From a virus, in IMG/VR virus record IMGVR_UViG_3300021061_000011, positions 1 through 43,464 of that record: a stretch of DNA of 43,464 nucleotides; one strand, 5' to 3'. The notes under the pieces were generated by a model. It saw only the letters and a program-made list of their open reading frames with translations. It was not told where the DNA came from and ran no database searches. Positions within the stretch are counted from its first letter, which is position 1; each line of letters begins with the position of its first letter. Both the position numbers and the translations under genes were made by a program. Shown here piece by piece: positions 1 to 43,379 of the stretch.

Positions 1-127
1 CATTCCGAGGAGGCACGCGAGGAGAAAGGCGTTGAGCTTCATTCGGTGAAATCCCACACGTAGCAGACCCCGCGGATCGAGTTGCTATTCGGCCGTCCAG
101 GGACGCAGGCGTACAACCGCTCCGCCA
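1..127. repeat. Terminal direct repeat, copy 1 (circular-assembly overlap)
   Basis: Bases 1-127 (cattccgaggagg...gctccgcca) are identical to 43338-43464. Confidence 0.95.
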
Positions 128-1751
128 CGGCGTCGTACGTCATCCCGATGCCGTGCGAGGCTTCGCCGCTCGACATCGGCGCCGGCATGTCGTTCATCAG
201 CCGTTGCACCGTGATCGTTCCGGTCGCCGGGGTGCTCAGGGAGCTATTGACCTGATACGTGAACGTCGTGCTGTTCACGTTGGTCATAAAGAACCCGCCG
301 TTATAGCCACTCGGCGTGGCGCCGGTGATATACGCGCTCTGGCTGCCGACCCCATGGGGCGTCGCCGTCGTCACCGTCGCCGTGGTCCCGGAGCGGGTAA
401 TACTGGTGACATTGACCACCGAGGCGGGGCCGAGCGGATAGGCGCTGTAGTTCAGATCCGGCGGGCTGTTCGCCGATCCGTACTGGACGTCGAAGTAGGA
501 ATCCGACTCCACACTCCAGACGTTCGAGGCTTCGGCGACCGCCTCGGGGTCCATGATGTACCAGCGATGGAAGCCCTGCTGATACCCCACCGTTGAGGCG
601 ACGTACTGGAGGTAGCCCGCGGCGACGTTCGTCATGCAGACGATGCCGTGCTTCGTCGCGGTGTAGGGCCACGCGCACGAGCCGACGATGTCCCATGTCC
701 AATACGCGGCCGGCCAGCTATCGAGTTGCTGATTCAGCGCAGGGGTCGTCGTTCCGCGAAGAAACCGATACGGCGGCGCCTGCGCGAAGGTCGCGAGGAA
801 CGCGTCGTAATACATCAACGGCGTGTTCGCCAGCGCACTGCCCTGCGGATTCGTGGCGATGTTGGGCGGCGCGACCGCGATCACGGTCGGCCCCATCGAG
901 TTAGAACCCGTGCCGCCGGCCGAGAAGTTGCCGCCGAAGCCCACCCCCAGGGTTTTGCCCGGCGTATAGGTGTTCGCGTAGTAGTCCGGTATCCGCAGCG
1001 CCCCGGACTGCACGGCCTTGACCCCGATGTTGCTGAACCGCCACGAGCCAATCGCGGTCCCTGTGCCTGCCGCCCAGTTCAGGGTGCTTTGCACCATCGA
1101 CGGGTTGTTCGGGCAGCACGCGTTATAGCTCTCCATGTAGAACTGGTAGAGCTTGTCGGCGTCCTCATCCCAAAAGATGCCCATCGCCGTCCCGCCGAAG
1201 GTGTTCCCGTTCTGATCGACGCGCTTACTGGACGCGAAATCGGGGAAGGTCTTCGCCACGGTGGCCGTGTTGTAGGTCCCGGAGACGACCAGCGCCGGAA
1301 TGTTGAACGCCACCATGCAGTAATTGGCGGCTTGGGTGAGCAGGTATGGCGTCCCGCTCTCGTACATGATGGTGATGCCCTGCGCGTTCGCCGTCGCGGC
1401 GCTGCTACAGGTGGACAGCGTCTCGGGCATCTTGAACGCGCCCACGTAGAAGGGGCTGCTGTAGTTCAGATCGCTTTCGGTCAACACGGTCCGCGCGGGC
1501 GGCGGGATCGGATCGATGATCTTTTCGAGACGGATACCCGTCCCGATGACGCGGACCTGTCCTGACAGCGCGAGCGGAAGCGCGAGGAGGGCGATGAGGG
1601 CGAGGAGGGCTAGTCGAGACCCTTGGAGATGTCCTCGCCGGATTTGTAGATCAGGCCGGCGAGCACTCCCAGAGCCACGATGACCACGCCCAGAAAGAAG
1701 GCCACGTAAATCATGCGCCGATGCTAGCACAACCGACATTAGTTGGAGCAT
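39..1751 (-). CDS. Large secreted hypothetical protein, fibre/receptor-binding-like; true start unresolved
   Basis: Maximal ORF shown. G/C-rich third positions appear in this frame only from about 1610 downward. Signal-like SRLALLALIALLALPLALSG/QVRV. C-terminal module TATVTTATPHG..YNGGFF..TTFTY. Stop TGA 39-41 overlaps the next ATG (ATGA). Confidence 0.75.
   Translation of the reverse strand: MLQLMSVVLASAHDLRGLLSGRGHRGSGSARRPDLQIRRGHLQGSRLALLALIALLALPLALSGQVRVIGTGIRLEKIIDPIPPPARTVLTESDLNYSSPFYVGAFKMPETLSTCSSAATANAQGITIMYESGTPYLLTQAANYCMVAFNIPALVVSGTYNTATVAKTFPDFASSKRVDQNGNTFGGTAMGIFWDEDADKLYQFYMESYNACCPNNPSMVQSTLNWAAGTGTAIGSWRFSNIGVKAVQSGALRIPDYYANTYTPGKTLGVGFGGNFSAGGTGSNSMGPTVIAVAPPNIATNPQGSALANTPLMYYDAFLATFAQAPPYRFLRGTTTPALNQQLDSWPAAYWTWDIVGSCAWPYTATKHGIVCMTNVAAGYLQYVASTVGYQQGFHRWYIMDPEAVAEASNVWSVESDSYFDVQYGSANSPPDLNYSAYPLGPASVVNVTSITRSGTTATVTTATPHGVGSQSAYITGATPSGYNGGFFMTNVNSTTFTYQVNSSLSTPATGTITVQRLMNDMPAPMSSGEASHGIGMTYDAVAERLYACVPGRPNSNSIRGVCYVWDFTE
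1610..1714 (-). CDS. 34-aa single-pass membrane mini-protein
   Basis: ATG 1714, TAG 1610-1612. Translation MIYVAFFLGVVIVALGVLAGLIYKSGEDISKGLD. About 28 of 34 third positions are G/C, whereas the overlapping long-ORF frame is G/C-poor at third positions here. Confidence 0.55.
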   Translation of the reverse strand: MIYVAFFLGVVIVALGVLAGLIYKSGEDISKGLD

Positions 1752-3559
1752 TCGGTGCTCGAGGACGAGGCATACAGTTGCCCCGTCGCGGTATCCACGC
1801 AGACCACTTTTTTGGATCCCGCCGCGCCGGTGGTTTCGAGGGACGTAAACGCGACACGGCCGGGCGTCTCAAAGATCAGCGTCGGCGTCCCGCCCTCGTC
1901 TCCGGTCAGCTCTACGATCGCCTCTGCCTCGTTGGCCCCGTCGGTATGCACAATGAACCGCACGGCGGCGGGTCCCGTGGCGCTGTCCCCCGTGGTGATC
2001 ACGCTGATCGCCGCGCCAGCGTTCGCCGTGTTGGAGGTGTTGATAATTTCAATCTCCGTGTCTCCACCCGCCTGCGCAGCGGTCACCGTCAACAATGCGA
2101 ACTCGGCCGTCATCGTGCCTTCGACGGTCAGATTGCCGGTCAGCGTCAGGCTGTTGAACGTCGGCGAGTCGGTCGTATCTAATGGCTGCGGCAGAATCGC
2201 GGATGTATCCACGTCGAGCACGTCCGCGGCGATCGTCAGCGGCGACGCCACCGTCAGAAACTTCACCGCCGTATCCGCATCCGCCCAATACAGGATGCGA
2301 TTCGCATTCGGATCGACCAGATTGGCGCCCGTGCCACCGTTCGCCAACGGCACCTGTCCACTGAGGCGCGTCCCGGCCGGCAGCGACCCCGTGGTGCCGC
2401 CATCAATCGGCAACCCCGTCGCGTTCGTCAACGTCCCCGAGGACGGCGTCCCAAGGGCCGGCGTCACGAACGTGGGCGAGGTCGCGAACACCAACGCGCC
2501 CGTCCCCGTTTCCCCCGTGACGGCCGACGCGAGATTCGCGCTCGAGGGCGTCGCCAGCCAGGTCGCGACCCCAGAGCCCAGGCCCGCGAGATTGGCCGCC
2601 GGAAAGCCCGTGGTGTTCGTCAGCGTGCCCGCCGACGGCACGCCCAGATCCGGCGTGACCAGCGTGGGCGACGTCGCAAAGACGAGTGCCCCCGAGCCGG
2701 TTTCCCCCGTGACCGCTGCGGCCAGATTGGCGGCGCTTGGCGTCCCCAGAAACGTCGCGACGTTGGCTCCCAACCCGGAGACGCCGGTACTGATTGGGAG
2801 CCCGGTGGCGTTCGTCAGCGTCGCGGCGGACGGCGTCCCGAGATTCGGCGTCGTGAGGCTCGGCGAGGTGCCGAATACCAGCGCACCCGATCCGGTTTCG
2901 TCGCTGATGTTCGCGGCAATGCCGGCGGAATCGGTGAGTGAGGTGACCACGCCCGTGGTCGTCGCCACCCGCATGATGCCGCTCGATAGCGACGCGAGCG
3001 CCTGTTCTGCGCTCAGATCACTATTCGCGGTCTGCGTGATGTAGGTCGCATCCGACGGCGCTCCGGTCGAGCATCCGGTACAGACCCCGGTGATCGTCAG
3101 CCCGTCAAACGTCGGCGAGTCCGACGTATTCAGGTTCTGGTTGAACGGATTGCCCCCACCCCCGCCGCCGGACCCGCGCAGGCCCGCGAGCTGGTTGGAC
3201 AGCACCACCGCCACATTGGCCGTCCCGCTGACGTAGCTCGTAAACGTGACCCGGACGCGCTGATACGTGGTGATCGTCCCGGTCCATGCCCCGTTCGTCG
3301 TCGTCGTGCTGACCGGCGTGGTGCTGGCACTCGGATTCAGGTTCAACGAGACGTAGCTATTCCCGATGAGCGCCTGAAACGTGATCGTCCCCACCCACGT
3401 CCCGGACACCTGAATCCCGATGCCGGCCGCATTCGCCGTCGCGACCTCGAGACAGCCGGCGCCCGGACAGGTGGTCGAACTGATCGACCCGCCCGTGACC
3501 TGCGCGGACGCGAGCGCCGGAAGCAGCGCGAGCGCAAGGGCGAGGAGCAGCCTACGCAT
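1739..3559 (-). CDS. Tail-fibre-like repeat protein with N-terminal signal peptide
   Basis: MRRLLLALALALLPALASA/QV. Gly run. Two S/TDSPTF(D/N)xLT(I/L)TG motifs. Three ETGSGALVF.TSP.L.TP.LG.PS..TLTN.TG units. An alternative GTG start lies at 3580. Confidence 0.85.
   Translation of the reverse strand: MRRLLLALALALLPALASAQVTGGSISSTTCPGAGCLEVATANAAGIGIQVSGTWVGTITFQALIGNSYVSLNLNPSASTTPVSTTTTNGAWTGTITTYQRVRVTFTSYVSGTANVAVVLSNQLAGLRGSGGGGGGNPFNQNLNTSDSPTFDGLTITGVCTGCSTGAPSDATYITQTANSDLSAEQALASLSSGIMRVATTTGVVTSLTDSAGIAANISDETGSGALVFGTSPSLTTPNLGTPSAATLTNATGLPISTGVSGLGANVATFLGTPSAANLAAAVTGETGSGALVFATSPTLVTPDLGVPSAGTLTNTTGFPAANLAGLGSGVATWLATPSSANLASAVTGETGTGALVFATSPTFVTPALGTPSSGTLTNATGLPIDGGTTGSLPAGTRLSGQVPLANGGTGANLVDPNANRILYWADADTAVKFLTVASPLTIAADVLDVDTSAILPQPLDTTDSPTFNSLTLTGNLTVEGTMTAEFALLTVTAAQAGGDTEIEIINTSNTANAGAAISVITTGDSATGPAAVRFIVHTDGANEAEAIVELTGDEGGTPTLIFETPGRVAFTSLETTGAAGSKKVVCVDTATGQLYASSSSTECSN
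2396..2902 (-). repeat. In-frame tandem repeat (about 64-65 codons, 2.6 copies) inside the fibre-like gene
   Basis: Protein residues 227-395 repeat. On the plus strand the string gtttcccccgtgac recurs at about 2509 and 2700. Confidence 0.8.
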
Positions 3560-3746
3560 CGGACGTCTTCGGCCGGCCACCCTTCTTCTTGGGCGCGTCG
3601 GTCTCCTCGGTGGCTTGTTCGGCCTTCAGCCGCGTGTACGGGGTGTCGTACGTGTAGCCCAGTTTCGCCAGACGCTCGGCGTCGGCCGCATCCGTGGCGA
3701 CCTGTCCTTTCCCGTCTTCGAGGTACACCCAGGTCGGGAACTCCAT
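3552..3746 (-). CDS. 64-aa hypothetical protein with basic C-terminus
   Basis: MEFPTWVYLEDGKGQ...KKKGGRPKTSDA. The ATG at 3746 shares one base with the upstream TGA (TGATG). It is the only protein-like part of the 324-codon ORF 3552..4526. Confidence 0.7.
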   Translation of the reverse strand: MEFPTWVYLEDGKGQVATDAADAERLAKLGYTYDTPYTRLKAEQATEETDAPKKKGGRPKTSDA

Positions 3747-4717
3747 CAGGCACTCCATTTCTTCGAGAACAGCCCCACTGTGACGAGCGCGAGCCCCACC
3801 GAGGCCAGATACAGTTGATGCGCGGGGAGAATCGATCCGGGTGTCGGGACCAGGAGCCGCACCGAGAGCGCAATCAGCACCCACAGCACGCCGCGCCGCA
3901 GCTCCCCCACCCACGCCAGCGCGAGAAAGGCGAGAATCGGCAGCGCGGCCCACGACACATTGCGGAGCGGAGCCATGGAGAGCCAGAGCCCCGGCACGGC
4001 CCAGGACACCAGATGCTGCGCGAACGCCGACGCCTGCGCCGTCGCCCAGTCCCACGGCGTGACGTCCGCGGTGCGCCACAGCCCCAGAAGCATCGGGATC
4101 GTGCCGAGACTCAGCCCTACCGCGACCGCCACGATCGCCCACGACACACCCGCCAGCGCGATCAGACCGAACGCCACGATGCCAGCTTCTTTGCTGACAC
4201 ACGCGAGCCCGACGCCCGCGCCGGCCAGCAGCCAGCGCCGATCGTGTGCCCCGAGCACGGCGAGCAACGCGCCCGTCGTCATCAGGACATCCGGCCGCCC
4301 TTGCAGATACGCCACAGCGGGGATCGCCATCGGATGCAGGCCGAAGACGCCCATCGTCAACGGCGCGGAGAGCCGCCAGCGAGCCGCGACGAGCCCGACC
4401 AGCCACGTATTCAGCAGATGGAGCCCGATCGAAATCGCGTGCGCGAGACCGGGCCGGTCCATCCCGTGTGTCAGCCAGAGCAGATCCGACAGGTATCGGT
4501 TCGGTCGCCACGTCCAGACCGGCCACGTCGCGCCGACCTTGTGCGCGTCTTCATAGACAAACCCGTCGGCCGACAGGTACGCGATCACGATGAGGACGAG
4601 GACGCCGACGCGGACGCCTGTATCACGGACTCGATCCGTTGCGCCCGCGCCTCGAACGAGCCGGGCCAGGGCCGTTTCACCGGAATCACCGCCAGCGACC
4701 GCGACGCCTGCTGCCAC
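3746..4717 (-). CDS. Polytopic membrane protein resembling the N-terminal GT-C (PMT_2/TMTC-type) glycosyltransferase core
   Basis: A TM helix is followed by DGFVYED. Motifs AHxxSIGLHLLNTWL and FGLHPMAIPAVAYLQGRPDVL. At least 8 hydrophobic spans. Start is ambiguous: GTG 4717 overlaps the upstream gene by 133 nt, or GTG 4588 sits in a GTGA overlap. Confidence 0.7.
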   Translation of the reverse strand: MAAGVAVAGGDSGETALARLVRGAGATDRVRDTGVRVGVLVLIVIAYLSADGFVYEDAHKVGATWPVWTWRPNRYLSDLLWLTHGMDRPGLAHAISIGLHLLNTWLVGLVAARWRLSAPLTMGVFGLHPMAIPAVAYLQGRPDVLMTTGALLAVLGAHDRRWLLAGAGVGLACVSKEAGIVAFGLIALAGVSWAIVAVAVGLSLGTIPMLLGLWRTADVTPWDWATAQASAFAQHLVSWAVPGLWLSMAPLRNVSWAALPILAFLALAWVGELRRGVLWVLIALSVRLLVPTPGSILPAHQLYLASVGLALVTVGLFSKKWSA

Positions 4718-5016
4718 TGCCCCTCCATGCTTTGTGTGACCGCGATGTTGAGTCCCGCGACGATGTGGACGTATGCGGGATACCGTGAGTGCGGCGCTTC
4801 CCGACGCGCTCGCAGGAACGCGACGAGCGCACCGGGCCGGTCCTCAGCTTTCAACCGCGCGTTCCCGAGGTTGATCCAGCTCTCCGCCGAGACCGGATCG
4901 ATGGCGACCGCTCGTGCCCACACGACCCCATCTGAGGTCCACGCAGGCACGAGTAACAGGGTGCGTGCCGCCAGTCCGAGGACCAGCAGCACGCCCCCGA
5001 GTCGTCTTACGAGCAC
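4585..5016 (-). CDS. Membrane-anchored TPR-motif protein
   Basis: GTG 5016 gives MLVRRLGGVLLVLGLAARTLLLV (TM helix). TPR-like AVAIDPVSAESWINLGNARLKAEDRPGALVAFLRA follows. Third positions stay G/C-rich to the stop at 4585. Confidence 0.65.
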   Translation of the reverse strand: MLVRRLGGVLLVLGLAARTLLLVPAWTSDGVVWARAVAIDPVSAESWINLGNARLKAEDRPGALVAFLRARREAPHSRYPAYVHIVAGLNIAVTQSMEGQWQQASRSLAVIPVKRPWPGSFEARAQRIESVIQASASASSSSS

Positions 5017-5525
5017 GTCCCCGTGCCGAGGCAGTACGGCGTCAGCGAGTTGAACGTAATCGGCTGGATGTTCGTCGCCTTCCAGACCGACGCGCGGCAC
5101 AGCCACACGTTGCCGTTAGAGACGTTCACCCACGGGACCACGATCTGGGTCGCCGTGGTGCAGGAGCCATACGGCGGATCGGCCTGCTGGAACGCATTCG
5201 AGGGACCCGACAACACCGTCGCCCCCGAGGCGTGCGACATCGCGCGCGTGCCATCGACGCCCCGACGCACCGTCAGGGTGGTGCCGCTGATGGACAGGAC
5301 CGTCATCGCCTCGAGATCGACGAAGAGTTCCTGGCCAACCGCGATGGCCTGCGAGACGGACGTAAACGCTGCCACGGACGCGACCGAAATCGTCGTCTGC
5401 GTGGTGTTCACCGCCGCCGACAGCGTGGTGTTGTTGAGATAGACCGGCGTCGCCGTCTGCGCGACGAGCGACCCGGAAAGCGCCACCGCCAGGGACAGGG
5501 CAATGAGGAATGTCTTCATGGTCAT
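5007..5525 (-). CDS. Secreted hypothetical protein directly after the coat gene
   Basis: MTMKTFLIALSLAVALSGSLVA/QT signal peptide. AGGAGG lies upstream; the second ATG at 5519 has the better spacing. Motif TLTVRRGVDGTRAMSHASGA. Confidence 0.8.
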   Translation of the reverse strand: MTMKTFLIALSLAVALSGSLVAQTATPVYLNNTTLSAAVNTTQTTISVASVAAFTSVSQAIAVGQELFVDLEAMTVLSISGTTLTVRRGVDGTRAMSHASGATVLSGPSNAFQQADPPYGSCTTATQIVVPWVNVSNGNVWLCRASVWKATNIQPITFNSLTPYCLGTGTCS

Positions 5526-5531
5526 GTCCTC

Positions 5532-6767
5532 CTACGCCGCCGCCACACGGCACGCGAGTTCAGGCCGCAGGATGTGCCAGCCGTACAGCACGTCCAGCCG
5601 GTTCATCAGCTTGTCCGTCACCGGATCCCAGTCGCGGGTGTAGCGGATCGAGATCCCGAGCTGGTCGTCGCTCTTGCGCGAGCCCTGATCCACGCCGTTG
5701 GGCATGTAGAGGTCCGCCGACACGAGCGTGATGAAGTCGGGGTGATACGCGATGTTGACCGGGTAGCTGACGCCGCTGATGGTCCCGAACGACGCCGCCG
5801 CGACGCCGTAGACCGTGATCGCCGCGTTGTCGGCCGGCAGGTTGCTAACGTTCTGGAACGCACCCGAGGTGATCATCGCGGGCTCGAACGTGATGGTCAT
5901 CGCCCCGCCCGCGCTCGTCGCCGTCGCCGTGACGCGGAAGTCCATCAGCGTCGAGGTCTGCATGTACGCCTGTGGGTTGATGGAGTAGACGCCCGCGAAC
6001 TGAATCACGTCGCCTTCGTTGAGGGTGTTCGAGGAGCCCGACCAGCCGTCCGTGATGATCGAGCCGGACGCGCCCTGCCCGGCGCCGTTCACCAGCGGCG
6101 TCGCCCCGGTGAGGGTGCCGACCGTCTGCCGGTAGATGTTCTGGTCCTTGCCGAACTTCAGATTCGCCGCGGTGCCCATCGCGCCCTTGCGGTTCTGGCG
6201 CGACACGTCCGTCTGCGGATTGAAGATGTTGTAGAGGCCGTTGACCAGATTCGCCTGCGTCTGCGGGTCCACCGCGACGTTGCGCTCGCCATCATCCCGC
6301 GCCGCCGCGTTGTCCAGCTTCACGCCCGCGTTGAGGAACGTGCCGAGCGTGGTGATGGACGTGCCGGGCGTCCCGACCGACTGGGAGACCCGAGCCGCGA
6401 CCTCGAGCCCGTCCTGGTCGATCTTGTTCGCGATGCGCGCCACCGCCGGCTTGAGGATGCGATCCGAGAACTCATCGATCTTCAGCGTGAGGTCTTCGGT
6501 CGTCATCTCCATGTGGACCTTGAAGTACCGATCCAGCGCCACGGTGGTGTACGTTTCCGTGATCGCCTCGGGACTCCAGCCCTGTCCGTAGGAACCGAGA
6601 TACCGCGCCGGCTTACGGACGCGGAGGGTGTCGCCGATCTTCGCGCCTGCCTTGGCGAAGTAGCTGTCGTACTTACGTCGAACTGTCTTCGTGAAACCCA
6701 ACTGGTTCTCGAGCACGTCGAGGGCTTCCAGCGTGATTTCGTCGGTGTTGAGAAACTGGTTGGACAT
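5532..6767 (-). CDS. Major capsid protein, P22 coat (gp5)-type
   Basis: 411 aa. LGFTKTVRRKYDSYF..GDTLRVRKP resembles the P22 coat family N-terminus. It sits directly after the scaffold gene. Confidence 0.85.
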   Translation of the reverse strand: MSNQFLNTDEITLEALDVLENQLGFTKTVRRKYDSYFAKAGAKIGDTLRVRKPARYLGSYGQGWSPEAITETYTTVALDRYFKVHMEMTTEDLTLKIDEFSDRILKPAVARIANKIDQDGLEVAARVSQSVGTPGTSITTLGTFLNAGVKLDNAAARDDGERNVAVDPQTQANLVNGLYNIFNPQTDVSRQNRKGAMGTAANLKFGKDQNIYRQTVGTLTGATPLVNGAGQGASGSIITDGWSGSSNTLNEGDVIQFAGVYSINPQAYMQTSTLMDFRVTATATSAGGAMTITFEPAMITSGAFQNVSNLPADNAAITVYGVAAASFGTISGVSYPVNIAYHPDFITLVSADLYMPNGVDQGSRKSDDQLGISIRYTRDWDPVTDKLMNRLDVLYGWHILRPELACRVAAA

Positions 6768-9173: not shown

Positions 9174-11425
9174 GCGTTTGTCTCCGGAGGCTGCAAGTCC
9201 GCCTCGTGCTCCCGCGCCTGCGCGTCCAGCCCCGCCTGCTGGTCCGTCGCCACGCTCCCGATCGCCCCCTGCTGCATCTGCGCTTCCAGGGTCTGCTCGT
9301 GGCTCATCTGCGACATCTCGCGGTCATGGTCCTGCTGCGCGTTCAGCATCGTCTGCTCGTGCTCGCGCTGCTGGAGCTGGTCGAGTTCCCCCTGCAACCG
9401 CGACAGGTTCTCGCTCGCCATCTTGGCGTCGATGGTCGCTTGCGTCTTGTAGATCTCCAGCCGGATCTTGGCCTGCTCGATCGCTTCGCGTGACGCCGTC
9501 TCGATGCGCTTGATCTCGATCTGCGTCTCCGCTTTGACGGTCTCGTTCTGGATCTGCTCCACCCGCTTGTCCAGTTCCTTCGTCGTCAGATCGAGCATCT
9601 GGCCCATCTGATTCAACTGCTGAGTGAGCTTCTGGATCTGCTGCTGCGGGTCCTGCTTTCCGTCCTGCGGCTGCAGCGGCGGGGGCAGCATCTTCTCGAG
9701 CCGCGCCGCAATCTGCCGGGAACCGGCGTCGTCCATGTGCTTCACGACCAGATCCGCGAAGAACGGCGCCTGGTCCTTCAACACTTCCATCAGCCGGAAC
9801 CCGTTCTCGACGAACTCCTGGCGACGCGTCGAGGTCGAGCCGCCCACGCTCACCGTCACGTCGTAGTGCCCCACGGACAGGTCGTAGAACTTCGCCTCGG
9901 CGTCGTCCTTCGCGGCTTGCACGGGCATCCCGTCCGGCCCCAGCCTGAACTTCTGCCCCAGCATCACCATTTCCGGTGTGTCGTCATCGCCCACGATCCG
10001 CAGGATGCGCCCCGGCCGGTCGTAGAACTTCGGGATCACGTCGATCAGGAGTTCCCCGAGGTAGCGGAGCGTGATGTTCGTGAAGTTGTCGAGATAGTGG
10101 CTGTTCCCGACCGTGGTTTCCTCGAACCGTGCCCGAATCGCGCGGCCGCTCTGGTCCGTGTTCTTCCGGCTCGGATCGGTCGGGTCGTACCAACTCGTCG
10201 TGCTCCGGAGATCCTGTTTAGCCAGGTTGATCGCCACGACCGTGGCTTCGATCGCTGGGTCGTGGACCATGATCTGCGGCGGGGGCAACAAGTGCCCCTC
10301 CTTCACTACCGACTTGTACGGCAGGTAGGACATGTTCCGGGTGGTGCGCTGCTCCCAGAACGCTTTGTAGGGCTCGATCTGCTCCGCGTCGGCGATGTAG
10401 TCCGGGGCCTTGCTGAGCGCGATCTTCTCGGTCAGGCTCGTGCGCTCGTAGTTGTAGGCCCGCTGCCCATCACGCGCCGCCCGATAGACGCCGCGAAACA
10501 GCCGCTTCCCCTGGTAGTAGTACTCTTCGCCGATCACTGGCGCCCACGGGATGCGTTTCCCCGGCCAATCCTGATGCTCAAGGGTTTCGATGCCGTTGAT
10601 CGTGTCGCAGCAAATCGTCCGATCCACCATCCGCCGCACGTCTGGCTTGACGACCTTTCGCCCTTCTGGCGCGTCTTTGAGACCGTACAAGTTGCCATCG
10701 TCGTACAGGTCTGCGCTATACGCCTGTTCCTTGACGTACCAATACTGGGCAACCCGGACGCCTTTCTCGGGGAACCACTGCGGAAACTCGGTCCCGAGCG
10801 TTTGCCAATCATCCAAGCTGGCGAGGACAGAGTCCGGCCAGCGCAGTTTGTATTCCGAGTGCGGCAAGTCCTCGATGTAGAACAGGAACCGCGCGTCCTG
10901 GAACGTCGTCGCGCGGGACGCCGGGTCTGGAAACACCGCCAGCGGGTTCAACACGCGGTCGATCACGAGGATCTGGTCCTCGCTCTGGTCGTCCAGATAC
11001 TCAGACCGCAGGTGCAGCCAGCCAAGCCCGATCGACGCCGCCATCTCAAAGCCCCAGTCGTAGGCGAGCTGGGCGTGGCAGACGTCCTGAATCTGCCGAA
11101 TCACGCCCTCGAACAGCGCCGCCGTCTCCTGGTCCGCGGTATCGCGGGGAATCGCCTTGATCGACGGACTCGAGCTGCGCTGCTGGTTGCAAATCTGCCG
11201 CAAGGCCGGGCCGACCTGGTCGAACGTCAGCACGGGCCGCGATTCGCGCCGCCGCTGCGCCTCCACCGCCGGATCCCACTGCTGGAGGGCTTTGAACGCG
11301 AGGTCAGTCGTCCATTCTTTCCGCTGGGTATCGTCCCCTGAGGCCGAGAGAAACCGTTCCCGCGCCAGCACCATGTGCGGATCGTCCGGGTCGTACTTTG
11401 CTTTGGTCTTCCGTCGTGAGGCCAT
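9170..11425 (-). CDS. Portal protein with long C-terminal coiled-coil (P22-barrel-like)
   Basis: 751 aa, directly after terL. The last ~170 aa are a Gln/Glu-rich heptad-type helix (QQQIQKLTQQLNQMGQML...). Confidence 0.85.
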   Translation of the reverse strand: MASRRKTKAKYDPDDPHMVLARERFLSASGDDTQRKEWTTDLAFKALQQWDPAVEAQRRRESRPVLTFDQVGPALRQICNQQRSSSPSIKAIPRDTADQETAALFEGVIRQIQDVCHAQLAYDWGFEMAASIGLGWLHLRSEYLDDQSEDQILVIDRVLNPLAVFPDPASRATTFQDARFLFYIEDLPHSEYKLRWPDSVLASLDDWQTLGTEFPQWFPEKGVRVAQYWYVKEQAYSADLYDDGNLYGLKDAPEGRKVVKPDVRRMVDRTICCDTINGIETLEHQDWPGKRIPWAPVIGEEYYYQGKRLFRGVYRAARDGQRAYNYERTSLTEKIALSKAPDYIADAEQIEPYKAFWEQRTTRNMSYLPYKSVVKEGHLLPPPQIMVHDPAIEATVVAINLAKQDLRSTTSWYDPTDPSRKNTDQSGRAIRARFEETTVGNSHYLDNFTNITLRYLGELLIDVIPKFYDRPGRILRIVGDDDTPEMVMLGQKFRLGPDGMPVQAAKDDAEAKFYDLSVGHYDVTVSVGGSTSTRRQEFVENGFRLMEVLKDQAPFFADLVVKHMDDAGSRQIAARLEKMLPPPLQPQDGKQDPQQQIQKLTQQLNQMGQMLDLTTKELDKRVEQIQNETVKAETQIEIKRIETASREAIEQAKIRLEIYKTQATIDAKMASENLSRLQGELDQLQQREHEQTMLNAQQDHDREMSQMSHEQTLEAQMQQGAIGSVATDQQAGLDAQAREHEADLQPPETNA

Positions 11426-14140: not shown

Positions 14141-14241
14141 CAGAAGTCCGCGCCGCCGACACCCAGGGCGGCATAGCACGCGAGCACGAGGGACCCGAAC
14201 CAGAGCGCGAGGGCGGCACACAGTTTCAACGCGTGCCACAT
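14140..14241 (-). CDS. 33-aa membrane mini-protein
   Basis: MWHALKLCAALALWFGSLVLACYAALGVGGADF. Third positions are G/C-rich. Confidence 0.4.
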   Translation of the reverse strand: MWHALKLCAALALWFGSLVLACYAALGVGGADF

Positions 14242-14615
14242 CGCGTCACCTCACACCACTGCTGGCGGTTGTGGACCGTGACAACGGCCATGGCGGCGAG
14301 CGAGCCCCCGAGGACGCCGAGGGATTCCCAGCGATGGCCACGGGACCACAAGGCGCGAGACAGGCCAATCGTCGCCGTGGTGCTGGCGAGCTTCACGGCC
14401 GACCATGCCGCGGGATGCTGGAGCAGGCCGCTGGCAATGGGATTGGCTTCGCGGACGAGCCCGGAGCGTGTCGCCTTTAGGGTGAAGGCGGTGTCGTAGC
14501 CTTGCAGGGCGACGAGCGAGACTTCGAGGAGCGTGCGGGTATCGCGCGTCTGAGCCTGTGCAGGCGTGACGCCGAGAACCAGGAGGAGGGGGATCAGCAG
14601 CGCGAGTCGCCGCAC
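14226..14615 (-). CDS. 129-aa secreted/membrane protein
   Basis: MRRLALLIPLLLVLGVTPAQA/QT signal peptide, followed by further hydrophobic segments. Confidence 0.7.
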   Translation of the reverse strand: MRRLALLIPLLLVLGVTPAQAQTRDTRTLLEVSLVALQGYDTAFTLKATRSGLVREANPIASGLLQHPAAWSAVKLASTTATIGLSRALWSRGHRWESLGVLGGSLAAMAVVTVHNRQQWCEVTRCGTR

Positions 14616-27980: not shown

Positions 27981-28574
27981 ATGCTGACGCCCGTGGATGA
28001 CTTCGGACGACGGCTGCGGCTGTTCCGCGTGCAACAGAACGCACGCCAAGTGCAATTGAGCGGTGTGGCCGACCGAGACAGCGAGGCGCGGCGCGCGTTC
28101 GGTCAGTACATGTCCAAACTGGAGACGGGCGCCGCCAGCAACCCCTCACTCGGTGTGCTGACGCGCATCGCACGCGGGTTCGGACTCACGCTCTCGCAGT
28201 TTTTTGCTGGCTTGGAGTCAGTGGATCTCCTACGCCAGACTGATACAGCGCACCGAAATCCAGTAGGGGAGATCACCAACGAAAGAATTTCGGCTGAGAC
28301 GTCTCGAATGACCTCATCTGACAACCTGATCGGTGATAAAGATCCTCGTGAGTCCCACCATTCACGAGAGGCGAGGCATGGCGTTATTGCAGTTCGGCGG
28401 AGCACGCGTGTGGCCTCGCTCACGAACGAGGAAGTCGACGCGCTCCTTGACGCTCTACACGCCGAAGAATCTCGGCGCCGACGAGTTCGCTCAGCTCAAC
28501 GACCTGCTCCGAAGACTCGATCAACTCAAGCTCCGCTATCCGCGAAGAGCAAAAAGGGCGCTGGTGGTCGGTGA
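27942..28574 (+). CDS. CI-like XRE-family repressor
   Basis: The probable start is ATG 27981 (MLTPVDDFGRRLRLFRVQQNARQVQLS...LGVLTRIARGFGLTLSQFF). The C-terminal ~40 codons of this frame are not protein-like. Confidence 0.7.
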   Translation: MPMFTVTCGVSVFMLTPVDDFGRRLRLFRVQQNARQVQLSGVADRDSEARRAFGQYMSKLETGAASNPSLGVLTRIARGFGLTLSQFFAGLESVDLLRQTDTAHRNPVGEITNERISAETSRMTSSDNLIGDKDPRESHHSREARHGVIAVRRSTRVASLTNEEVDALLDALHAEESRRRRVRSAQRPAPKTRSTQAPLSAKSKKGAGGR

Positions 28575-32814: not shown

Positions 32815-33975
32815 CTACCCGTCGATTTCGCCCGTAATCCCCGCCTGCAACGTCTGGCCGCCGTCGTCCCCGTACCAGGTCGTCGTCCCGCCCACCGTGA
32901 TCGAGCGTTCCAGCGCCGTGAGGTAGTGGTACCCAATCCCCGGAAAGATCCGTAGGCTGGCCCGCGGACTCGCTATCTGCGCCGCCGCCCCCGACGTGCC
33001 CCGCATCCCGAGCACGCCGGTTGCCGGGGTGGTGGCGCTGTCCAGCCCGATCGACACCGCCGCACTCATCGCGTTCAGATCATTCGCGGCAAATCCCGCA
33101 CACTCTGCCGTGACGGGCACGCCGACCACCCCGATCACGACCGCCACCTGATTTGCCGTGGAGCCGTTGAACTGCCGATAGGTATCCGTGGTGTAGGTCC
33201 AGCCGTTCGTGGCCTCGATCACGCGCATCGGCCTGGGGACGCGGTTGTAGTAGTTCCACACGAAGCGGTGCGCCAGCGAGTCCTCCCCACGGCCGGCGAC
33301 GCTCGTGATCCGAATGGTGCCCAGATACCGCTTCGTCGAGTCGTCGCCCTTCACCAGTACGCCATCGTGGTTGTCCAAGGCCGTCGCCCGCGCGGTGGCA
33401 CTCGCCCACGCCACGACGGACAGCGCCACCTGATCCCCGCTCGCCCCGGCGAACACGTCGTAATTCGTATTGGCGAGGAGCGCCGTGAGGTCCTGTGAGA
33501 GTTCCGAAAAGCTATGGAGCAACCATCCCATCGTCACCGAGTCGTACAGGGCAATCGCATTCCCGCCGTACGGCGTGAAGTACAGCGTTTGCGCGGAGGT
33601 GCGATCGGTCGCGGGCACGGCGACGCCGGCTTCCAGCGTCAACCGGCCTTGCACGATGCCGTTGTCGCTCGTCGGCGTCGCGGCCAGACCCACGGCGTTG
33701 ATGTTGTCCACCGTGCGGATCAAGGCGCCGTCTTCGTCGTAGATCTTGAACTTGTAGCTGTTCCCCGGCTGGAGATAGATCCGCCCGAACCCGGAGCCGT
33801 CGAGGACGATCGGGTTGCTATTCAGGTTCGCGTCGATCAGGTCCGCTTGGGACCACGTCTCGGCCGGCGTGGTGGTACCCGCCTCGAACGTCTCGACCTG
33901 TCCGTTCTCGAGCGGGTCGCCGTTCTCGTTCAGAAACTGCTGGTAGAGCCAGGGCGCCAAAGTGCCAGTCGGCAT
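32815..33975 (-). CDS. Tail fibre / tail protein
   Basis: The N-terminus FLNENGDPLENGQVETFEAGTTTPAETWSQADL..NSNPIVLDGSG matches the common podovirus tail-fibre N-terminal pattern. Confidence 0.7.
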   Translation of the reverse strand: MPTGTLAPWLYQQFLNENGDPLENGQVETFEAGTTTPAETWSQADLIDANLNSNPIVLDGSGFGRIYLQPGNSYKFKIYDEDGALIRTVDNINAVGLAATPTSDNGIVQGRLTLEAGVAVPATDRTSAQTLYFTPYGGNAIALYDSVTMGWLLHSFSELSQDLTALLANTNYDVFAGASGDQVALSVVAWASATARATALDNHDGVLVKGDDSTKRYLGTIRITSVAGRGEDSLAHRFVWNYYNRVPRPMRVIEATNGWTYTTDTYRQFNGSTANQVAVVIGVVGVPVTAECAGFAANDLNAMSAAVSIGLDSATTPATGVLGMRGTSGAAAQIASPRASLRIFPGIGYHYLTALERSITVGGTTTWYGDDGGQTLQAGITGEIDG

Positions 33976-38709: not shown

Positions 38710-40160
38710 CAATGCACCCCCGGCAGCGCGTCGAAGTACGCATTCGCAATCCGCCACGGGATCGCGTCTGACACGCTGAACTCGTAGAGCCGGTTCCGCC
38801 CAGAGCCGAGCATCTGGAATTTCATGTGCACGCCGTACTGCCCCAACCGCCCCGCCGAGGCCGCGCGTTCATTGCTCCACGTCTTCCCGCCGTCATTCGA
38901 CCAGCGCAACATCCCTTGCGGGGTCTGCGCGGGAAAGACGGGATTGCCCAACCCGACCTCCAGATCGATTTGGAGCTTGGGAAACCGGATCGACTTCAGC
39001 TCATTCACCGCGTAGGGCGTGCGCCGCACGCGCCGAATCACCGCGCCGTCCATGCCCGTCGTATGCGCGATGTCCATGTCGTAGATCACGCCGGACTGCC
39101 GGTCCTGCACCAGGTGCTTGCCGAACGCGAAGATGTGCGACGCGACCCGATACGCCGTGAACCGCATCAACGAGGAGGACCAATCCCCGCGCTCATGCCA
39201 GGAGGCCGTGGCCGCATCCCAGACCCATGTTCTCCCCTCGGTCGGAAAGCTCAGGATGAAGAACTCGTGCCCCTGGTCCTGATACGTGACGGCCTGCGCG
39301 TCGCTCGTCGTCTCGTACCCTTGAATGGCGAACTCGACCCCGTGATCGGAAATCCGCTGCGGCGATCCGCCCGTGCCCGTGGCCCGGTAGACCACCCCGT
39401 TGCCGCGCGCCGACTGCCCGAACCAGACGGGCGTGTTGTCGCAGATGTCACACGCGAACGTCGCCCCGATCCCCGTCGAGAAGAACGCGCCCTGGATCGG
39501 CTGAAACGGCTGATCCGCGTCGCCCGTGTTCACATAGACATCCGACGTCTGCTGCCCAAAGAGCCAGATTTCGCCGTCTTTGATCAGCATCCCGCGCCAG
39601 CGGTCGCCCGACGTATTCCGCTGCGTCACATCGGACGCATTCCACGACGTCCCATCGAGCAGATCCGACCACTTCAGTGTGGAGGTCGGCACATCGAGCA
39701 CCAGAAAAAACCCGTCCACGTAGCCGCACACGGTGCCTGTCAGCGGATCGCCCGCGGAATCGTTCACCTGCGCGAACGCGTGGGAGTCCAGGTCGAAGCA
39801 GTAGACCAACCCGCCCGACGTGATCAGCACCTGGTGCCCGGCGAGCCCATTGGTCGCCAGCGTGGCCGGATTCGTGTCCTGCTGCACCGTCCCCCGCAGC
39901 ACGGTCGTCTCGTCGCTCTGGAGTTCGTAGAACCCCGTGCCCGAGACGCAGAAGGCGCGGCCGTTGACTTCGATGGCCCCTCGGCCAGACGGCTGCGCCG
40001 TGGACGCGAACGCCTCAAAGCCCGGACACGGATAGAACGCCATCGGGGTTTTGGCCCCTTCACTCTCCGACGCTTCGAGGTACCAGTTGATCAGCGCCTC
40101 GGCATCGACGTTCAGCGATTGCGACGTGTACGCCCGCCCGATGAAGTTGGGGTAAATCAT
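38709..40160 (-). CDS. Tail hub / DNA-stabilisation protein, P22 gp10-like
   Basis: 483 aa from MIYPNFIGRAYTSQSL (ATGA overlap). Length, position and end patterns resemble gp10. The N-terminal 102 codons of the ORF are not protein-like. Confidence 0.6.
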   Translation of the reverse strand: MIYPNFIGRAYTSQSLNVDAEALINWYLEASESEGAKTPMAFYPCPGFEAFASTAQPSGRGAIEVNGRAFCVSGTGFYELQSDETTVLRGTVQQDTNPATLATNGLAGHQVLITSGGLVYCFDLDSHAFAQVNDSAGDPLTGTVCGYVDGFFLVLDVPTSTLKWSDLLDGTSWNASDVTQRNTSGDRWRGMLIKDGEIWLFGQQTSDVYVNTGDADQPFQPIQGAFFSTGIGATFACDICDNTPVWFGQSARGNGVVYRATGTGGSPQRISDHGVEFAIQGYETTSDAQAVTYQDQGHEFFILSFPTEGRTWVWDAATASWHERGDWSSSLMRFTAYRVASHIFAFGKHLVQDRQSGVIYDMDIAHTTGMDGAVIRRVRRTPYAVNELKSIRFPKLQIDLEVGLGNPVFPAQTPQGMLRWSNDGGKTWSNERAASAGRLGQYGVHMKFQMLGSGRNRLYEFSVSDAIPWRIANAYFDALPGVH

Positions 40161-40924
40161 GGCGTGCCCGTTCGCCAGTTGAACGGCGAGCCCCAGTTCG
40201 GGAACGACAGCGCCCGATCCGCGTAGATGTCCATCGGTCGCACGTTCGCGACCCGGATGCGGTCCTCGGCGGCCCGCTGCTGCTGCATCAGCAGTTCGCT
40301 GACGGGCAGTCCGCAGACCGGCGCCAGTCGCACCGCCAGCGTATTCGTCAGGAAATCGAGATAGCCCGGCGGCAGCCGGATCGCATCGTTCAGGCTGTCG
40401 ATCTGCGGCATCGGCGTCGGCGTGTAGAGCCGCAGTTGGTAATTGGCGGATTGCGGGACCGGCCACGTCAGGATGTTGCCCAACCCGCCATCCAGGTTGT
40501 CCGCGTCCGTGTCAAAGGCGTAGTCGTAGTAGATCGCCGTCGGGTACGTCGAGGTCATCAGCTTCAACCGGACGTTCGCCCACTGATCCGGGTCTGCGAC
40601 CGTGATCGGGATTTCGAGCGGGTCATCCGCGTTTGTCGGATCGATCACGCTCGCGTTGTCGATCCAGAGCGGCCGATCGATGTCGAAGTCCCCGCCCTGC
40701 CCGATCGTGTAGGTCTGCTGGTCCGCGACGAGGTCGATCGTCGTGCTGACGATGTGCCAGATGAGCAACCGATCGACGCCGAACGAGTCAATCAACGCGA
40801 TCAGCTCGTGGACCGCCACCGGACCATCCGTCGCCGACAGGGGATCGCCCGCCGCGATGTACCCGAGCTTCAGGTACGCGCGGGTGACGAGGTCCCTGAC
40901 GTAGCCTTGCCAGGGGGCACTCAT
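40157..40924 (-). CDS. Head-to-tail adaptor, P22 gp4-like N-terminus
   Basis: VRDLVTRAYLKLGYIAAGDPLSATDGPVAVHELIALIDSF resembles the gp4 N-terminal pattern. It sits immediately before the hub gene. Confidence 0.55.
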   Translation of the reverse strand: MSAPWQGYVRDLVTRAYLKLGYIAAGDPLSATDGPVAVHELIALIDSFGVDRLLIWHIVSTTIDLVADQQTYTIGQGGDFDIDRPLWIDNASVIDPTNADDPLEIPITVADPDQWANVRLKLMTSTYPTAIYYDYAFDTDADNLDGGLGNILTWPVPQSANYQLRLYTPTPMPQIDSLNDAIRLPPGYLDFLTNTLAVRLAPVCGLPVSELLMQQQRAAEDRIRVANVRPMDIYADRALSFPNWGSPFNWRTGTP

Positions 40925-43071
40925 CGCAGCACCATCGCCGTGCAGACATGGCCGGGCGCATTCGCGACGAACACGAACCCGGACGTGGTCAACGTGTCGA
41001 ACCCGATCGCCGTGGCCGTGGGACAGGAGCCGATCACCATGTAGTTGGCGTCGGGTTCGTTCGCCCCGATGGTGGCCGTGATGCCGTTCTGTCCGCCGCC
41101 GAACATGTAGTCGGACTTCGGCGCCACGGTGACTTGCGTGCTGCTGATGTAGCGGTCAATCACGCGTGTCACGTTCGCGCCCACGGGATTCAGCGAAATG
41201 CCGGCCAGGGTGACGGGTTTGCCGACGTCCGACAGATAGAACCGGCCCGAGGTCGCCGTGATCGTCTCGTTCACGATGTTGACGGTCACGTTCCGCTGGA
41301 AGGTGAACGTGGTGGTCGCGCCAGCCCCGAGGGTGGTCTGCACGCGGAGGTTCTGCCCATCGACCCGCGTCCCTTCCGAGAGCATCCGCACGCGCTTCAG
41401 CAACCACGCGGTGAGGGAGGACGTGTTGTCGCCCATGTTTAAGGGCGGCATCTGCTGGGTGTAGATCGGGTAGTCCGCCGTCGTGTCCGTGCCGCTGACC
41501 GTCAGCGTCGCGAGCACGCCCGACTTGTCGCCGTAGGGTCGCAACGAACTGTCCCCGACGTTCTCATCCCAGTACTGGGTATTCGAGACGTCGTAGCGAA
41601 TCGAGGCGCCGGTCGCGATGAAGAACGGCAGCGAGGTATCGCCGAGAATCCGGGAGTCCCTGACCGTGACGAACGGGCAATTGCTACAGGAGACCTTCCC
41701 GCCGATCTTCGAGCCCAGGATCGTGAGCTGGCCGAACGCCCCGGAGACGACGACCCGATCCGCGTTGCTCGGGCTGACGACTTCAATGGACTCCAGCGTG
41801 ACGAGCCCGCCCGAGGTGGACGTGACCACACGGTTGGCCCCTTCCGAACGGATTCCGGTGATGTTGAACGCGCCGTTCTGTTCGATGGCGATGTCGGCCA
41901 CCGTGGAATTGCTGAAGCTGCCCCCCAACACGGTCCCCGTCGAGGCGAGGAAATCCAGGCAGGTGCCGTTCGCATCGCAGGAGACGTTCAGAAACGTGTG
42001 ATTCAGTGAATTCAGGTCGATTTCACTGAAGCCCGTCGTGTTGTTGTAGAAGCCCACGTCCTGATAGAGGATTTCACTCGCCGCCGCCTGGACGCCGCCG
42101 TCACCAGCTCTGATCCCGATCGAAAAGCCCGTGACCGACACATCGGTGAAGACCCCGGCCAGCGTCTGCGTCCCGCCGTAGCCCGCCGAGTTTCCGCCCT
42201 CGAGAATCCCCACCGTCGTCCCCACCGCGACGCCGTTGGTGAGGCCGAAGTGGGTGACCGTGAAGTACTTGATGCGCGAGAGCTTCAGCACCGTGGCATT
42301 CGTGGCGCCGATCCAGCGCAGCCCAGAGGTCGCCGAACTCACCCCGCGAATCGAGAGGTAGCTATCGACGCCGGCCGTCGCCGAGCCGAGCACCAAGGCG
42401 GTGCCCACGGCACAGCGCGTGGCGGGAAACACGACCTCGGCCGCCCGCCCCGACACGGCCAGGGCCGCATCGAACGCATCCTGAATTTCATCCGCATCAT
42501 CCGTGGTGCCATCACAGACTGCCCCGTATTCGGTGACATCGATCTCGAACGGGAACGACGGCCCAGAGTCCCCGCCCGAGGGCGGCGTCACCCGCTTGTC
42601 CACGATGTTGACGCCGCTGATGGTCTGGGCATTCGCGGGAACGTAGACCGCCGCCAGCAACACCACGTTGGTGGGCAGATCGACCGTGTAGGGCGTCACC
42701 GCAGGCACGCCTTCGAGCACGTCGTAATCGCCATCGGTCTCGATCACCACCAGATCGACGCGCGGCAACGAATCGGGCGCCGGGATGATCACGGAGCCGG
42801 CGCCTTCCGACACCGCCACTCCGTTGATCACGACCGCGCAGGCAGCAATCTGCAGCGTGAAGGACAACGGCGAGGACGCCGTCACGGCACAGCCCGAGGT
42901 GACGCCTTCACCGCCAATCCCCGCGACCAGCGCCGCATAGTCGCTTTCCATCGCGACGGCTTGCCGCGGATAGCTCACATCGTTGGCGTTCGGGATCGTG
43001 AACGCCCCCGAGACCGTGAAGCTCAGGGCGAGGCAGAACGCGAGGACGATTACGGCTTTGAGGGTTCGCAT
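40921..43071 (-). CDS. Pectate-lyase-fold beta-helix tailspike/depolymerase-like protein with signal peptide
   Basis: MRTLKAVIVLAFCLALSFTVSG/AF. DVTEYGAVCDGTTDDADEIQDAFDAA, followed by long Gly/Ser/Thr/Val beta-strand repeats. The ORF extends to 43125. Confidence 0.8.
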   Translation of the reverse strand: MRTLKAVIVLAFCLALSFTVSGAFTIPNANDVSYPRQAVAMESDYAALVAGIGGEGVTSGCAVTASSPLSFTLQIAACAVVINGVAVSEGAGSVIIPAPDSLPRVDLVVIETDGDYDVLEGVPAVTPYTVDLPTNVVLLAAVYVPANAQTISGVNIVDKRVTPPSGGDSGPSFPFEIDVTEYGAVCDGTTDDADEIQDAFDAALAVSGRAAEVVFPATRCAVGTALVLGSATAGVDSYLSIRGVSSATSGLRWIGATNATVLKLSRIKYFTVTHFGLTNGVAVGTTVGILEGGNSAGYGGTQTLAGVFTDVSVTGFSIGIRAGDGGVQAAASEILYQDVGFYNNTTGFSEIDLNSLNHTFLNVSCDANGTCLDFLASTGTVLGGSFSNSTVADIAIEQNGAFNITGIRSEGANRVVTSTSGGLVTLESIEVVSPSNADRVVVSGAFGQLTILGSKIGGKVSCSNCPFVTVRDSRILGDTSLPFFIATGASIRYDVSNTQYWDENVGDSSLRPYGDKSGVLATLTVSGTDTTADYPIYTQQMPPLNMGDNTSSLTAWLLKRVRMLSEGTRVDGQNLRVQTTLGAGATTTFTFQRNVTVNIVNETITATSGRFYLSDVGKPVTLAGISLNPVGANVTRVIDRYISSTQVTVAPKSDYMFGGGQNGITATIGANEPDANYMVIGSCPTATAIGFDTLTTSGFVFVANAPGHVCTAMVLR

Positions 43072-43379
43072 TGAAAGGTCGTCCGATTGACCACGCACCC
43101 GGCATCCTTCGACAACTGCTGCCACTGCGCCTCACGCGCGGCGGTGTCGAGCTTGTCCTGACAGCTCCACCAACTCGCCTGGAGCGTGAGAACCTGTTTC
43201 TGCACGGCCGCAAGCTGCTGCTGGAGGTGCAACACCTGGGCACGGAGCTTCTGTTCCACCGTGACGCTCGCGGGCTTCGGCTCGGTGAGAATCGGTTCGT
43301 CCACAATCGGCGTGGGTGCTTGTGCGAACGTCACGGCCATTCCGAGGAGGCACGCGAGGAGAAAGGCGTTGAGCTTCAT
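43050..43379 (-). CDS. 109-aa secreted/anchored coiled-coil protein; its start lies in the terminal repeat
   Basis: MKLNAFLLACLLGMAVTFA/QA, then VEQKLRAQVLHLQQQLAAVQKQVLTLQ. Three Cys after the predicted signal-peptide cleavage. The ATG overlaps the stop of the gene at 39 (ATGA) once the contig is circularised. Confidence 0.7.
   Translation of the reverse strand: MKLNAFLLACLLGMAVTFAQAPTPIVDEPILTEPKPASVTVEQKLRAQVLHLQQQLAAVQKQVLTLQASWWSCQDKLDTAAREAQWQQLSKDAGCVVNRTTFQCEPSKP

Follow-up and report, generated by a model that had tools for sequence, protein, structure and literature searches.

In phage P22 the coat gene is followed directly by the adaptor gene, and the structural proteins of tailed phages are regarded as being made and assembled in the cytoplasm. 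Phage proteins that reach the host envelope are known from other settings. GtrC-type seroconversion enzymes of the GT-C class (P22, Shigella phages) are polytopic and act at the periplasmic face on glycans of the envelope. The exported morons found among tail genes (lambda lom and bor, phi80 and N15 cor, T5 llp) encode small lipoproteins or outer-membrane proteins, usually under promoters of their own, and the receptor-binding protein g3p of filamentous phages has a cleavable signal peptide and disulfide bonds and is assembled at the membrane. Here we analyzed a virus genome of 43,464 nucleotides (IMG/VR virus record IMGVR_UViG_3300021061_000011, positions 1 to 43,464; this whole stretch is referred to as the window), in which a block of nine genes lies between a P22-type major coat gene and an SU10-type head-to-tail adaptor gene. 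The block encodes fibre-like and beta-helix proteins with predicted signal peptides, which suggests that some phage appendage-type proteins are routed via the host periplasm instead of the cytoplasm. We tentatively read it as a late set of exported proteins directed at envelope glycans.

Predicted signal peptides and virion-type domains

The nine genes run on the minus strand from the stop of the coat gene (5532..6767), through the junction of the contig ends, to the start of the adaptor gene (40157..40924), and their coordinates and order are as given in the first-pass annotation of this DNA; all block genes below are on this strand. Signal peptides were called by a crude rule-based scan of our own that looked for a start codon, a short basic n-region, an h-region of 7-15 residues, small residues at -3 and -1, and a total length of 15-30. 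Where five textbook signal peptides had been noted earlier, four are complete, each with a start codon, one or two basic residues, a hydrophobic run of 12-15 residues and small residues at -3 and -1. They belong to the secreted 170-aa protein (MKTFLIALSLAVALSGSLVA/QT; 5007..5519), the fibre-like 606-aa protein (MRRLLLALALALLPALASA/QV; 1739..3559), the secreted 109-aa protein (MKLNAFLLACLLGMAVTFAQA/PT; 43050..43379) and the 716-aa protein (MRTLKAVIVLAFCLALSFTVSG/AFTIPN; 40921..43071), with predicted cleavage candidates at residues 20, 19, 21 and 22. The fifth, on a gene for a protein of ~523 aa, is without an ATG, GTG or TTG start. The rule picked out four of the nine block genes, compared with one of ~40 other open reading frames (ORFs; Fisher p = 0.003), and among 129 retrieved proteins, mostly phage structural, it was positive only for five direct homologues and one other.

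Homologues retain these N-termini over considerable divergence. Protein P0002 is 55% identical to the 716-aa protein and has a different signal peptide; between P0001 and P0002, identity is 26% over the signal region, compared with 68% over the domain that follows it, and the n-h-c form is kept. Signals were also present in the homologue of the 170-aa protein at locus L009 (166 aa, 56% identical) and, for the 523-aa protein, in each of its three full-length homologues (P0010-12). No in-frame start codons occur at the cleavage sites, so signal-less isoforms are not expected, and isoforms made from dual starts were ruled out. Cysteines make up 1.5% of the mature block proteins, in close pairs, compared with 0.54% in other late proteins, and the Cys count is even in 11 of 12 signal-bearing mature proteins. 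These even counts are suggestive only as a sign of export because some signal-less relatives, including beta-helix proteins, are also Cys-rich; by Cys richness alone, relatives with and without a signal cannot be told apart. The signals appear genuine and are maintained in relatives, and export into the periplasm is likely.

The exported proteins also carry domains of the kind found in virions. After predicted cleavage, the 716-aa protein would start AFTIPN, and five signal-less homologues start MAFTIPN, MAFKIPN, MPFTVPN and similar. These homologues have a 140-residue N-terminal domain in common, followed by divergent beta-helices or repeat fibres, and PHROGs lists the family of this domain under virion structural, baseplate or head protein (phrog_3398, phrog_20556, phrog_9534). 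The 716-aa protein, which thus combines a virion-protein N-terminal domain with a probable beta-helix, gave weak pectate-lyase-like and tailspike matches. The 606-aa protein contains tail-fibre repeats at residues ~205-484, which are 53-62% identical to signal-less fibre genes of podovirus MW202483 and other phages, and six Cys in close pairs. Residues 28-115 of the 170-aa protein match tail-fibre and virion-protein PHROGs and correspond to a domain common at tail-fibre N-termini; a Cys-containing C-terminal domain follows. A small domain common to phage hubs, adaptors and baseplate proteins is present in the 523-aa protein. Sequence and profile searches of the PDB with the 716-, 523- and 606-aa proteins, the membrane-protein family described below and the N-domain family returned nothing meaningful. 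The virion-type domains of the 716-, 606-, 170- and 523-aa proteins indicate that the exported proteins are receptor-binding-type scaffolds with a predicted signal added in front.

The all-beta protein of ~523 aa (39..1610; phrog_9998, 5e-9) has an N-terminus that includes LALLALIALLALPLALSG/QVRV and no canonical start codon. On the minus strand, no ATG, GTG or TTG occurs from the stop of the preceding 34-aa ORF to ~position 1487. GGG stands at the expected GTG start (~1610-1625), with GAGGA 9 nt upstream, and a single base change would give GTG-TCT-CGA, to be read as MSRLALLAL. The h- and c-region stretch is coding by its G+C content at third codon positions (GC3) and homologous to the signal peptides of P0010-12; by eye, the post-cleavage QVRVIGTG resembles the Q-RVSVLGN and Q-NVVVLGN that follow the signals of P0011 and P0012. 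Three assemblies are identical at the missing start, which rules out an assembly error, and a -1 frameshift fusing the 34-aa and 523-aa ORFs is not favoured, no slippery heptamer being visible. Either the signal has recently been disabled, leaving a cytoplasmic product of 481 aa as predicted by gene callers, or the gene would depend on unusual initiation. Throughout its family, which occurs in two phage types, the signal is always present. An AlphaFold2 model of the 523-aa protein from a 4-row alignment was unusable (predicted local distance difference test, pLDDT, 37.8). In a phage of a different type (L006, 141-3043; Gp77-like, with a downstream protease/scaffold-like gene), two consecutive genes bear signals, one of them encoding a 716-aa homologue of the 523-aa protein in which the signal is followed by two additional Fn3-like repeats.

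The block within the late region

Independent gene calls on two other assemblies, which are identical over the 5.6 kb compared, agree with the nine genes of the window. The 170-aa gene has AGGAGG 8 nt upstream of its ATG, and its stop is overlapped by the GTG start of a gene for a tetratricopeptide repeat (TPR) protein of ~143 aa (4585..5016), predicted to be N-terminally anchored or secreted. There follows, after an out-of-frame overlap of 133 nt (4585-4717), the gene for a 323-aa polytopic inner-membrane protein (3746..4717), tentatively classed as GT-C-like. The next gene, identified as an ORF and by gene calls, encodes a soluble 64-aa protein without a signal (3552..3746), for which no family match was found. 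Between the 606-aa and 523-aa genes lies a single-transmembrane (TM) peptide of 34 aa (1610..1714), with a GC3 of ~85% by hand count and a weak holin-type PHROG match (0.05). The stop of the 523-aa gene (39-41) overlaps the ATG of the 109-aa gene (ATGA) across the contig junction. The 109-aa protein appears coiled-coil-like by eye and has three Cys in its mature part; a spanin role for it was rejected, since it lacks a proper lipobox and lysis is encoded elsewhere (31-32.7 kb).

Genes within the block are joined by overlaps (ATGA, GTGA, TGATG, or 8-22 nt) or separated by gaps of at most ~24 nt. No promoter-like sites were found in the block, and terminator-like sites show no excess there, their number being at or below shuffle expectation. 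GC3 is 0.82-0.89, matching the flanking late genes. The overlapping junctions, the lack of promoter-like sites and the late-gene GC3 indicate that the block is most likely co-expressed with the virion proteins as part of the late operon, and not as a separate unit. The autonomous transcription unit and/or deviant base composition by which lysogenic-conversion morons are recognized were not found in it.

Gene callers passed over the TPR ORF, for which a GC3 frame plot indicates coding; homologues occur at the corresponding position in L009 (36% identical, ATG start) and in a second locus, L010. Its scores against TPR models lie below the cut-offs (TPR_2, 19 vs 27 bits; TPR_17, 18.5 vs 24.4 bits). 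For the membrane protein, a word-based homology search found no homologue, and an exhaustive search recovered 341 homologues of ~320 aa, which form an unannotated family. The hydropathy profile shows at least six hydrophobic segments. A GFVYED motif follows the first transmembrane segment (TM1), its Asp being invariant in 44 homologues, and D, H and K-E columns are likewise invariant; we infer that the motif lies in the first extracytoplasmic loop. Pfam gave no match for the phage membrane protein, and the curated GT-C threshold was not reached. Transitive matches fell below the cut-offs (PMT_2 at 22.9 vs 26.1 bits, 1e-4, in P0247; GT87 at 4e-3 in one family member), as did a match to NF046093 (1e-3; 18 bits vs a cut-off of 150). 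The family profile found nothing among PDB sequences, and an AlphaFold2 model from the single sequence was unusable (pLDDT 47.6). The earlier label of GT-C-like thus keeps weak support from the polytopic form, the acidic motif and the sub-threshold PMT_2, GT87 and NF046093 matches, with no curated model passed. Longer cellular relatives (P0229, P0267) have the membrane domain fused to C-terminal TPR repeats with strong TPR matches, and on this ground the two phage proteins most likely act together. A GT-C-like activity of the membrane protein is plausible.

The out-of-frame overlap of the TPR and membrane-protein genes (~130 nt) is conserved (window 4585-4717; L009 ~2100-2152; L010 ~380-419). 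The sequence that encodes TM1 of the membrane protein encodes, in the other frame, a Ser-rich tail of the TPR protein, and a Ser- or Cys-rich tail is also present in L009 and L010. A membrane-protein start at GTG 4588, considered for its GC3 and GTGA overlap, was rejected because it would lose TM1 and put the GFVYED loop in the cytoplasm; the start at 4717 was preferred because homologues have TM1 and this is the only upstream start.

Together, the genes for the secreted 170-aa protein, the TPR protein and the membrane protein make up a cassette that is found whole or in part at four other loci (L009, L010, L011 and L012). The order in L009 (coat, secreted 170-aa-type protein, TPR protein, membrane protein) is that of the window, and the coat proteins are 65% identical; of the cassette, L010 holds only the TPR-membrane pair. 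On an HK97-type viral contig (L012, 7157-8894), a signal-bearing 199-aa protein and then a member of the GFVYED family follow the capsid and small head genes. Phage structural genes are recognizable in the window, L009 and L012, and the short contigs L010 and L011 are phage-like by eye only, which is consistent with all five genomic contexts of the cassette being phage-borne. Metagenome scans and some viral-contig scans returned nothing. The 64-aa proteins encoded after the membrane gene in the window (3552-3746) and in L010 (1282-1473) have a loose E[FY]P...G...V.D.A motif in common, with no significant BLAST similarity between them.

The block had been described as an intrusion between coat and adaptor. 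A prophage-like relative of the window in Solibacteraceae (L007) passes from coat to adaptor without intervening genes, and phage PBR31 has two small genes there. The window is not unique in this respect, since MW202520 and L009 carry signal-less fibre genes in the same position. L005 has a signal-bearing 711-aa gene that overlaps its adaptor gene. Given the fibre genes in relatives, the space between coat and adaptor is, on the genomes compared, a variable fibre slot in this lineage, and the unusual feature of the block is its signals and not its position. In L007, two tandem paralogous adaptor genes (9200-10624) lie between coat and hub.

The first 127 bp of the window are identical to its last (1..127 and 43338-43464), and the contig junction lies inside the block. 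This terminal repeat indicates a complete genome of 43,337 bp that is circular or circularly permuted. Its G+C content is 64.9%, and nearly all genes are on the minus strand. The coat gene that bounds the block upstream (PF11651, P22_CoatProtein, 3.4e-35; phrog_283, 4e-69) and a portal gene (PF16510, 1.5e-124) identify a P22-type head module; scaffold and large terminase genes are also encoded. At the downstream boundary, the stop of the 716-aa gene is overlapped by the start of the minus-strand adaptor gene (phrog_12985, 1.8e-35; PF24175). A hub gene of the P22 gp10 kind lies at 38709-40160 (phrog_578, PF11134). Further genes encode an M15 endolysin, holin-like proteins, three probable ejection proteins and a tyrosine integrase (28571-29707), and from this gene content, including the integrase, the genome is that of a temperate podovirus. 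Outside the block, in a P22 gp9-like position, a signal-less canonical tailspike or fibre of 386 aa (32815..33975, minus strand) was identified by N-terminal similarity: over its N-terminal 113 aa, it shares 37% identity with the N-terminus of the Xanthomonas phage PBR31 protein annotated as tailspike, and 43% with the 219-aa fibre of MW202520. Cultured phages are all distant, the coat reaching at best 44% identity. The sole relative in a named genome is the prophage-like region of a Solibacteraceae (Acidobacteriota) metagenome-assembled genome (MAG), with adaptor and coat 35% and 41% identical, which is only a hint as to the host, suspected to be among the Acidobacteriota.

Elsewhere in the window, a sigma-70 family factor (30291-30869, minus strand; Sigma70_r2, 9e-9) adjoins the lysis and late genes, and a tRNA-Phe (GAA) is predicted at 14178-14267 (minus strand) that at 90 nt is long for a tRNA. 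A small plus-strand ORF directly after the integrase gene (29788-30045) has a strong GGGAGG ribosome-binding site and encodes an 85-aa product with a signal-like hydrophobic segment and eight Cys within the last 40 residues. Its GC3 is 0.80, and the antisense frame scores equally; it is a possible secreted moron.

Possible roles of the exported proteins

Our preferred reading, to which we give a little less than an even chance, is that the block is a late, Sec-exported, envelope-glycan-directed protein set built from receptor-binding parts. The 170-, 606-, 109- and 716-aa proteins, and ancestrally also the ~523-aa protein, would pass through Sec to the periplasm, lose their signals to signal peptidase I and take up their fold there, probably forming disulfide bonds. 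The inner-membrane-anchored TPR protein and the polytopic GT-C-like protein would cooperate at the periplasmic face. The exported proteins would not be incorporated in the cytoplasm, and their target would be glycans of the host envelope. The fibre would serve to bind these and the beta-helix and all-beta proteins to cut or bind them, and sugar would be transferred to a glycan or to the exported proteins by the membrane enzyme. As an outcome, the phage's own receptor may be masked or stripped and the matrix loosened before and at lysis, so that re-adsorption and superinfection would be limited and release helped. Infection itself would be served by the signal-less tailspike (32815-33975), the presence of which also contradicts the idea that the block is the sole receptor-binding equipment of the phage. 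We favour this reading on the grounds that the phage has a canonical tailspike, that envelope chemistry is suggested by the cassette, that members of the 523-aa family always bear a signal and that secretion of phage enzymes is known already; among prophage carbohydrate-active enzymes, ~5% are signal-bearing (PMC13507307).

Several observations weigh against it. None of the block proteins has an enzymatic domain above curated threshold, and PADLOC models of known defence and exclusion systems gave 0 matches across all nine proteins; the exclusion system proposed as one option by the first-pass annotation therefore has no match among known defence or exclusion families. The GT-C assignment draws weak support from its sub-threshold matches. 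The virion-type N-domain of the 716-aa protein equals the beta-helix in conservation, and the predicted mature protein begins in register with the signal-less relatives, features that fit a particle component better than a free enzyme. Proteins released by lysis need no signal peptide merely to get outside, the fibres that MW202520 and L009 encode in the coat-adaptor slot are signal-less, and the host can be judged only from the 35-41% identical prophage-like relative in the Solibacteraceae MAG. The annotation had left a choice between exported envelope remodelling or exclusion and an unusual route for making tail appendages; the signals, virion-type domains and membrane pair bear out the terms of that choice, and the evidence does not decide it.

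The main rival is the second of these routes, in which the signal-bearing fibre, all-beta and beta-helix proteins would be virion appendages that mature in the periplasm and dock after the holin opens the inner membrane; it is possible and, in our estimate, on the unlikely side. The appendages would acquire disulfide bonds and perhaps O-glycosylation by the TPR/GT-C-like pair, with the outer membrane still confining both pools. It draws on the virion-type domains themselves (the N-domain family, the repeats common to signal-less fibres, and the small domain of hubs, adaptors and baseplate proteins), on AFTIPN after the predicted cleavage set beside the MAFTIPN start of signal-less relatives, on a 716-aa-type gene that overlaps the adaptor gene start in two phages, on the ordinary fibres in the slot of relatives, and on the holin and endolysin genes of the window. 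P22 heads accept tailspikes in vitro, and TMTC-type enzymes glycosylate folded beta-rich secreted domains. The in-register N-terminus, however, is also expected if a signal was merely added before an existing gene, a canonical signal-less tailspike is already encoded, and the closest relative, L009, has the cassette yet signal-less fibres. The N-domain also occurs in a phage without a detectable adaptor or hub of the window's type (L015), so it is not tied to this tail. To our knowledge, appendages matured in the periplasm have no precedent in tailed phages, and our literature search turned up no account of tailed-phage fibres with signal peptides or of such an arrangement, both of which count against this route. 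The full two-compartment scheme, with Sec-routed fibres and beta-helices, disulfides, O-glycosylation by a phage-encoded split TPR/GT-C (TMTC-like) enzyme and mounting after holin action, is rather unlikely.

Lysogenic conversion would make at least the first three genes (170-aa, TPR and membrane) a seroconversion or exclusion moron that acts in the lysogen and is merely sited in the late region, with the gtr genes, lom, bor and cor as models. A temperate phage with a tyrosine integrase (28571-29707), a predicted polytopic, periplasm-facing membrane enzyme and a cassette mobile between two capsid lineages would suit such a role. The expression features argue against it: no promoter-like site or excess of terminator-like sites, junctions that overlap or leave at most ~24 nt, and GC3 of 0.82-0.89 as in other late genes. 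GtrA/GtrB partners are lacking too, as is similarity to known conversion or defence families, and we regard this explanation as improbable. We give slightly less room to the notion that nothing is exported and the hydrophobic N-termini are uncleaved cytoplasmic-side tethers or functionless additions to ordinary, cytoplasmically assembled fibres, which we hold to be improbable as well. The start codon is missing from one of the five genes, so that the signal is dispensable at least in that case, and signal-less Cys-rich beta-helix proteins exist; against this stand the n-h-c form and small -3/-1 residues kept across 26%-identical signal regions, the near absence of such N-termini from ~120 other retrieved proteins, mostly phage structural, and the even Cys counts.

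Comparison with known systems

Similar arrangements of signals and an enzyme pair occur in several unrelated uncultured phage contigs, and the TPR-membrane pair represents a new, recognizable and unannotated phage gene cassette. If the preferred reading of a free "late secretome" is true, phages would re-use receptor-binding parts as exported tools for the envelope and matrix, with a bearing on exclusion, release and depolymerase discovery. If the proteins are instead mounted on virions, they would reveal a route of assembly and a kind of virion modification that are both new, and would matter for structural-gene annotation and for the handling of signal peptides by virion-protein predictors.

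The closest counterparts in domain structure are the modular tailspikes and branched receptor-binding proteins of podoviruses (P22 gp9, the PBR31 tailspike, Klebsiella KP32-type), which likewise join a conserved structural domain at the N-terminus to a beta-helix or repeat fibre, are encoded in the late operon next to the adaptor and hub genes, and vary among relatives in their distal parts. The block differs from them in the predicted cleavable Sec-type signal before the N-domain and in being accompanied by a separate signal-less tailspike. With GtrC-type enzymes it has in common a temperate P22-like phage and a polytopic membrane protein expected to act on periplasmic glycans, whereas it lacks GtrA/GtrB and any Gtr-family match, pairs the membrane protein with a TPR protein and a secreted protein, and is coupled into the late operon instead of lying beside the attachment site. 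PMT_2/TMTC-type GT-Cs, including P0229 and P0267, have a similar acidic motif (GFVYED) after TM1 and extracytoplasmic TPRs, and homology to them is detectable by phmmer. The phage version is split into two genes, TPR first, with the 133-nt out-of-frame overlap and a short membrane part (~320 aa), and its Pfam and NCBIfam scores are below the cut-offs.

The exported morons (lom, bor, cor, llp) resemble the block in placing signal-bearing proteins within or beside structural and receptor-binding genes, with surface or exclusion effects; the block proteins, in contrast, are large and fibre-like, and their genes are coupled to those for coat and adaptor. Prophage carbohydrate-active enzymes that bear signals are comparable as probably secreted, glycan-directed phage proteins, and the survey that described them left out structural-type proteins (PMC13507307). 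The block differs from these enzymes in its virion-type scaffolds, in which no CAZy-type domain was detected. Finally, g3p of filamentous phages offers the parallel of a receptor-binding-type protein with a signal and disulfides, whereas the block belongs to a tailed phage released by lysis.

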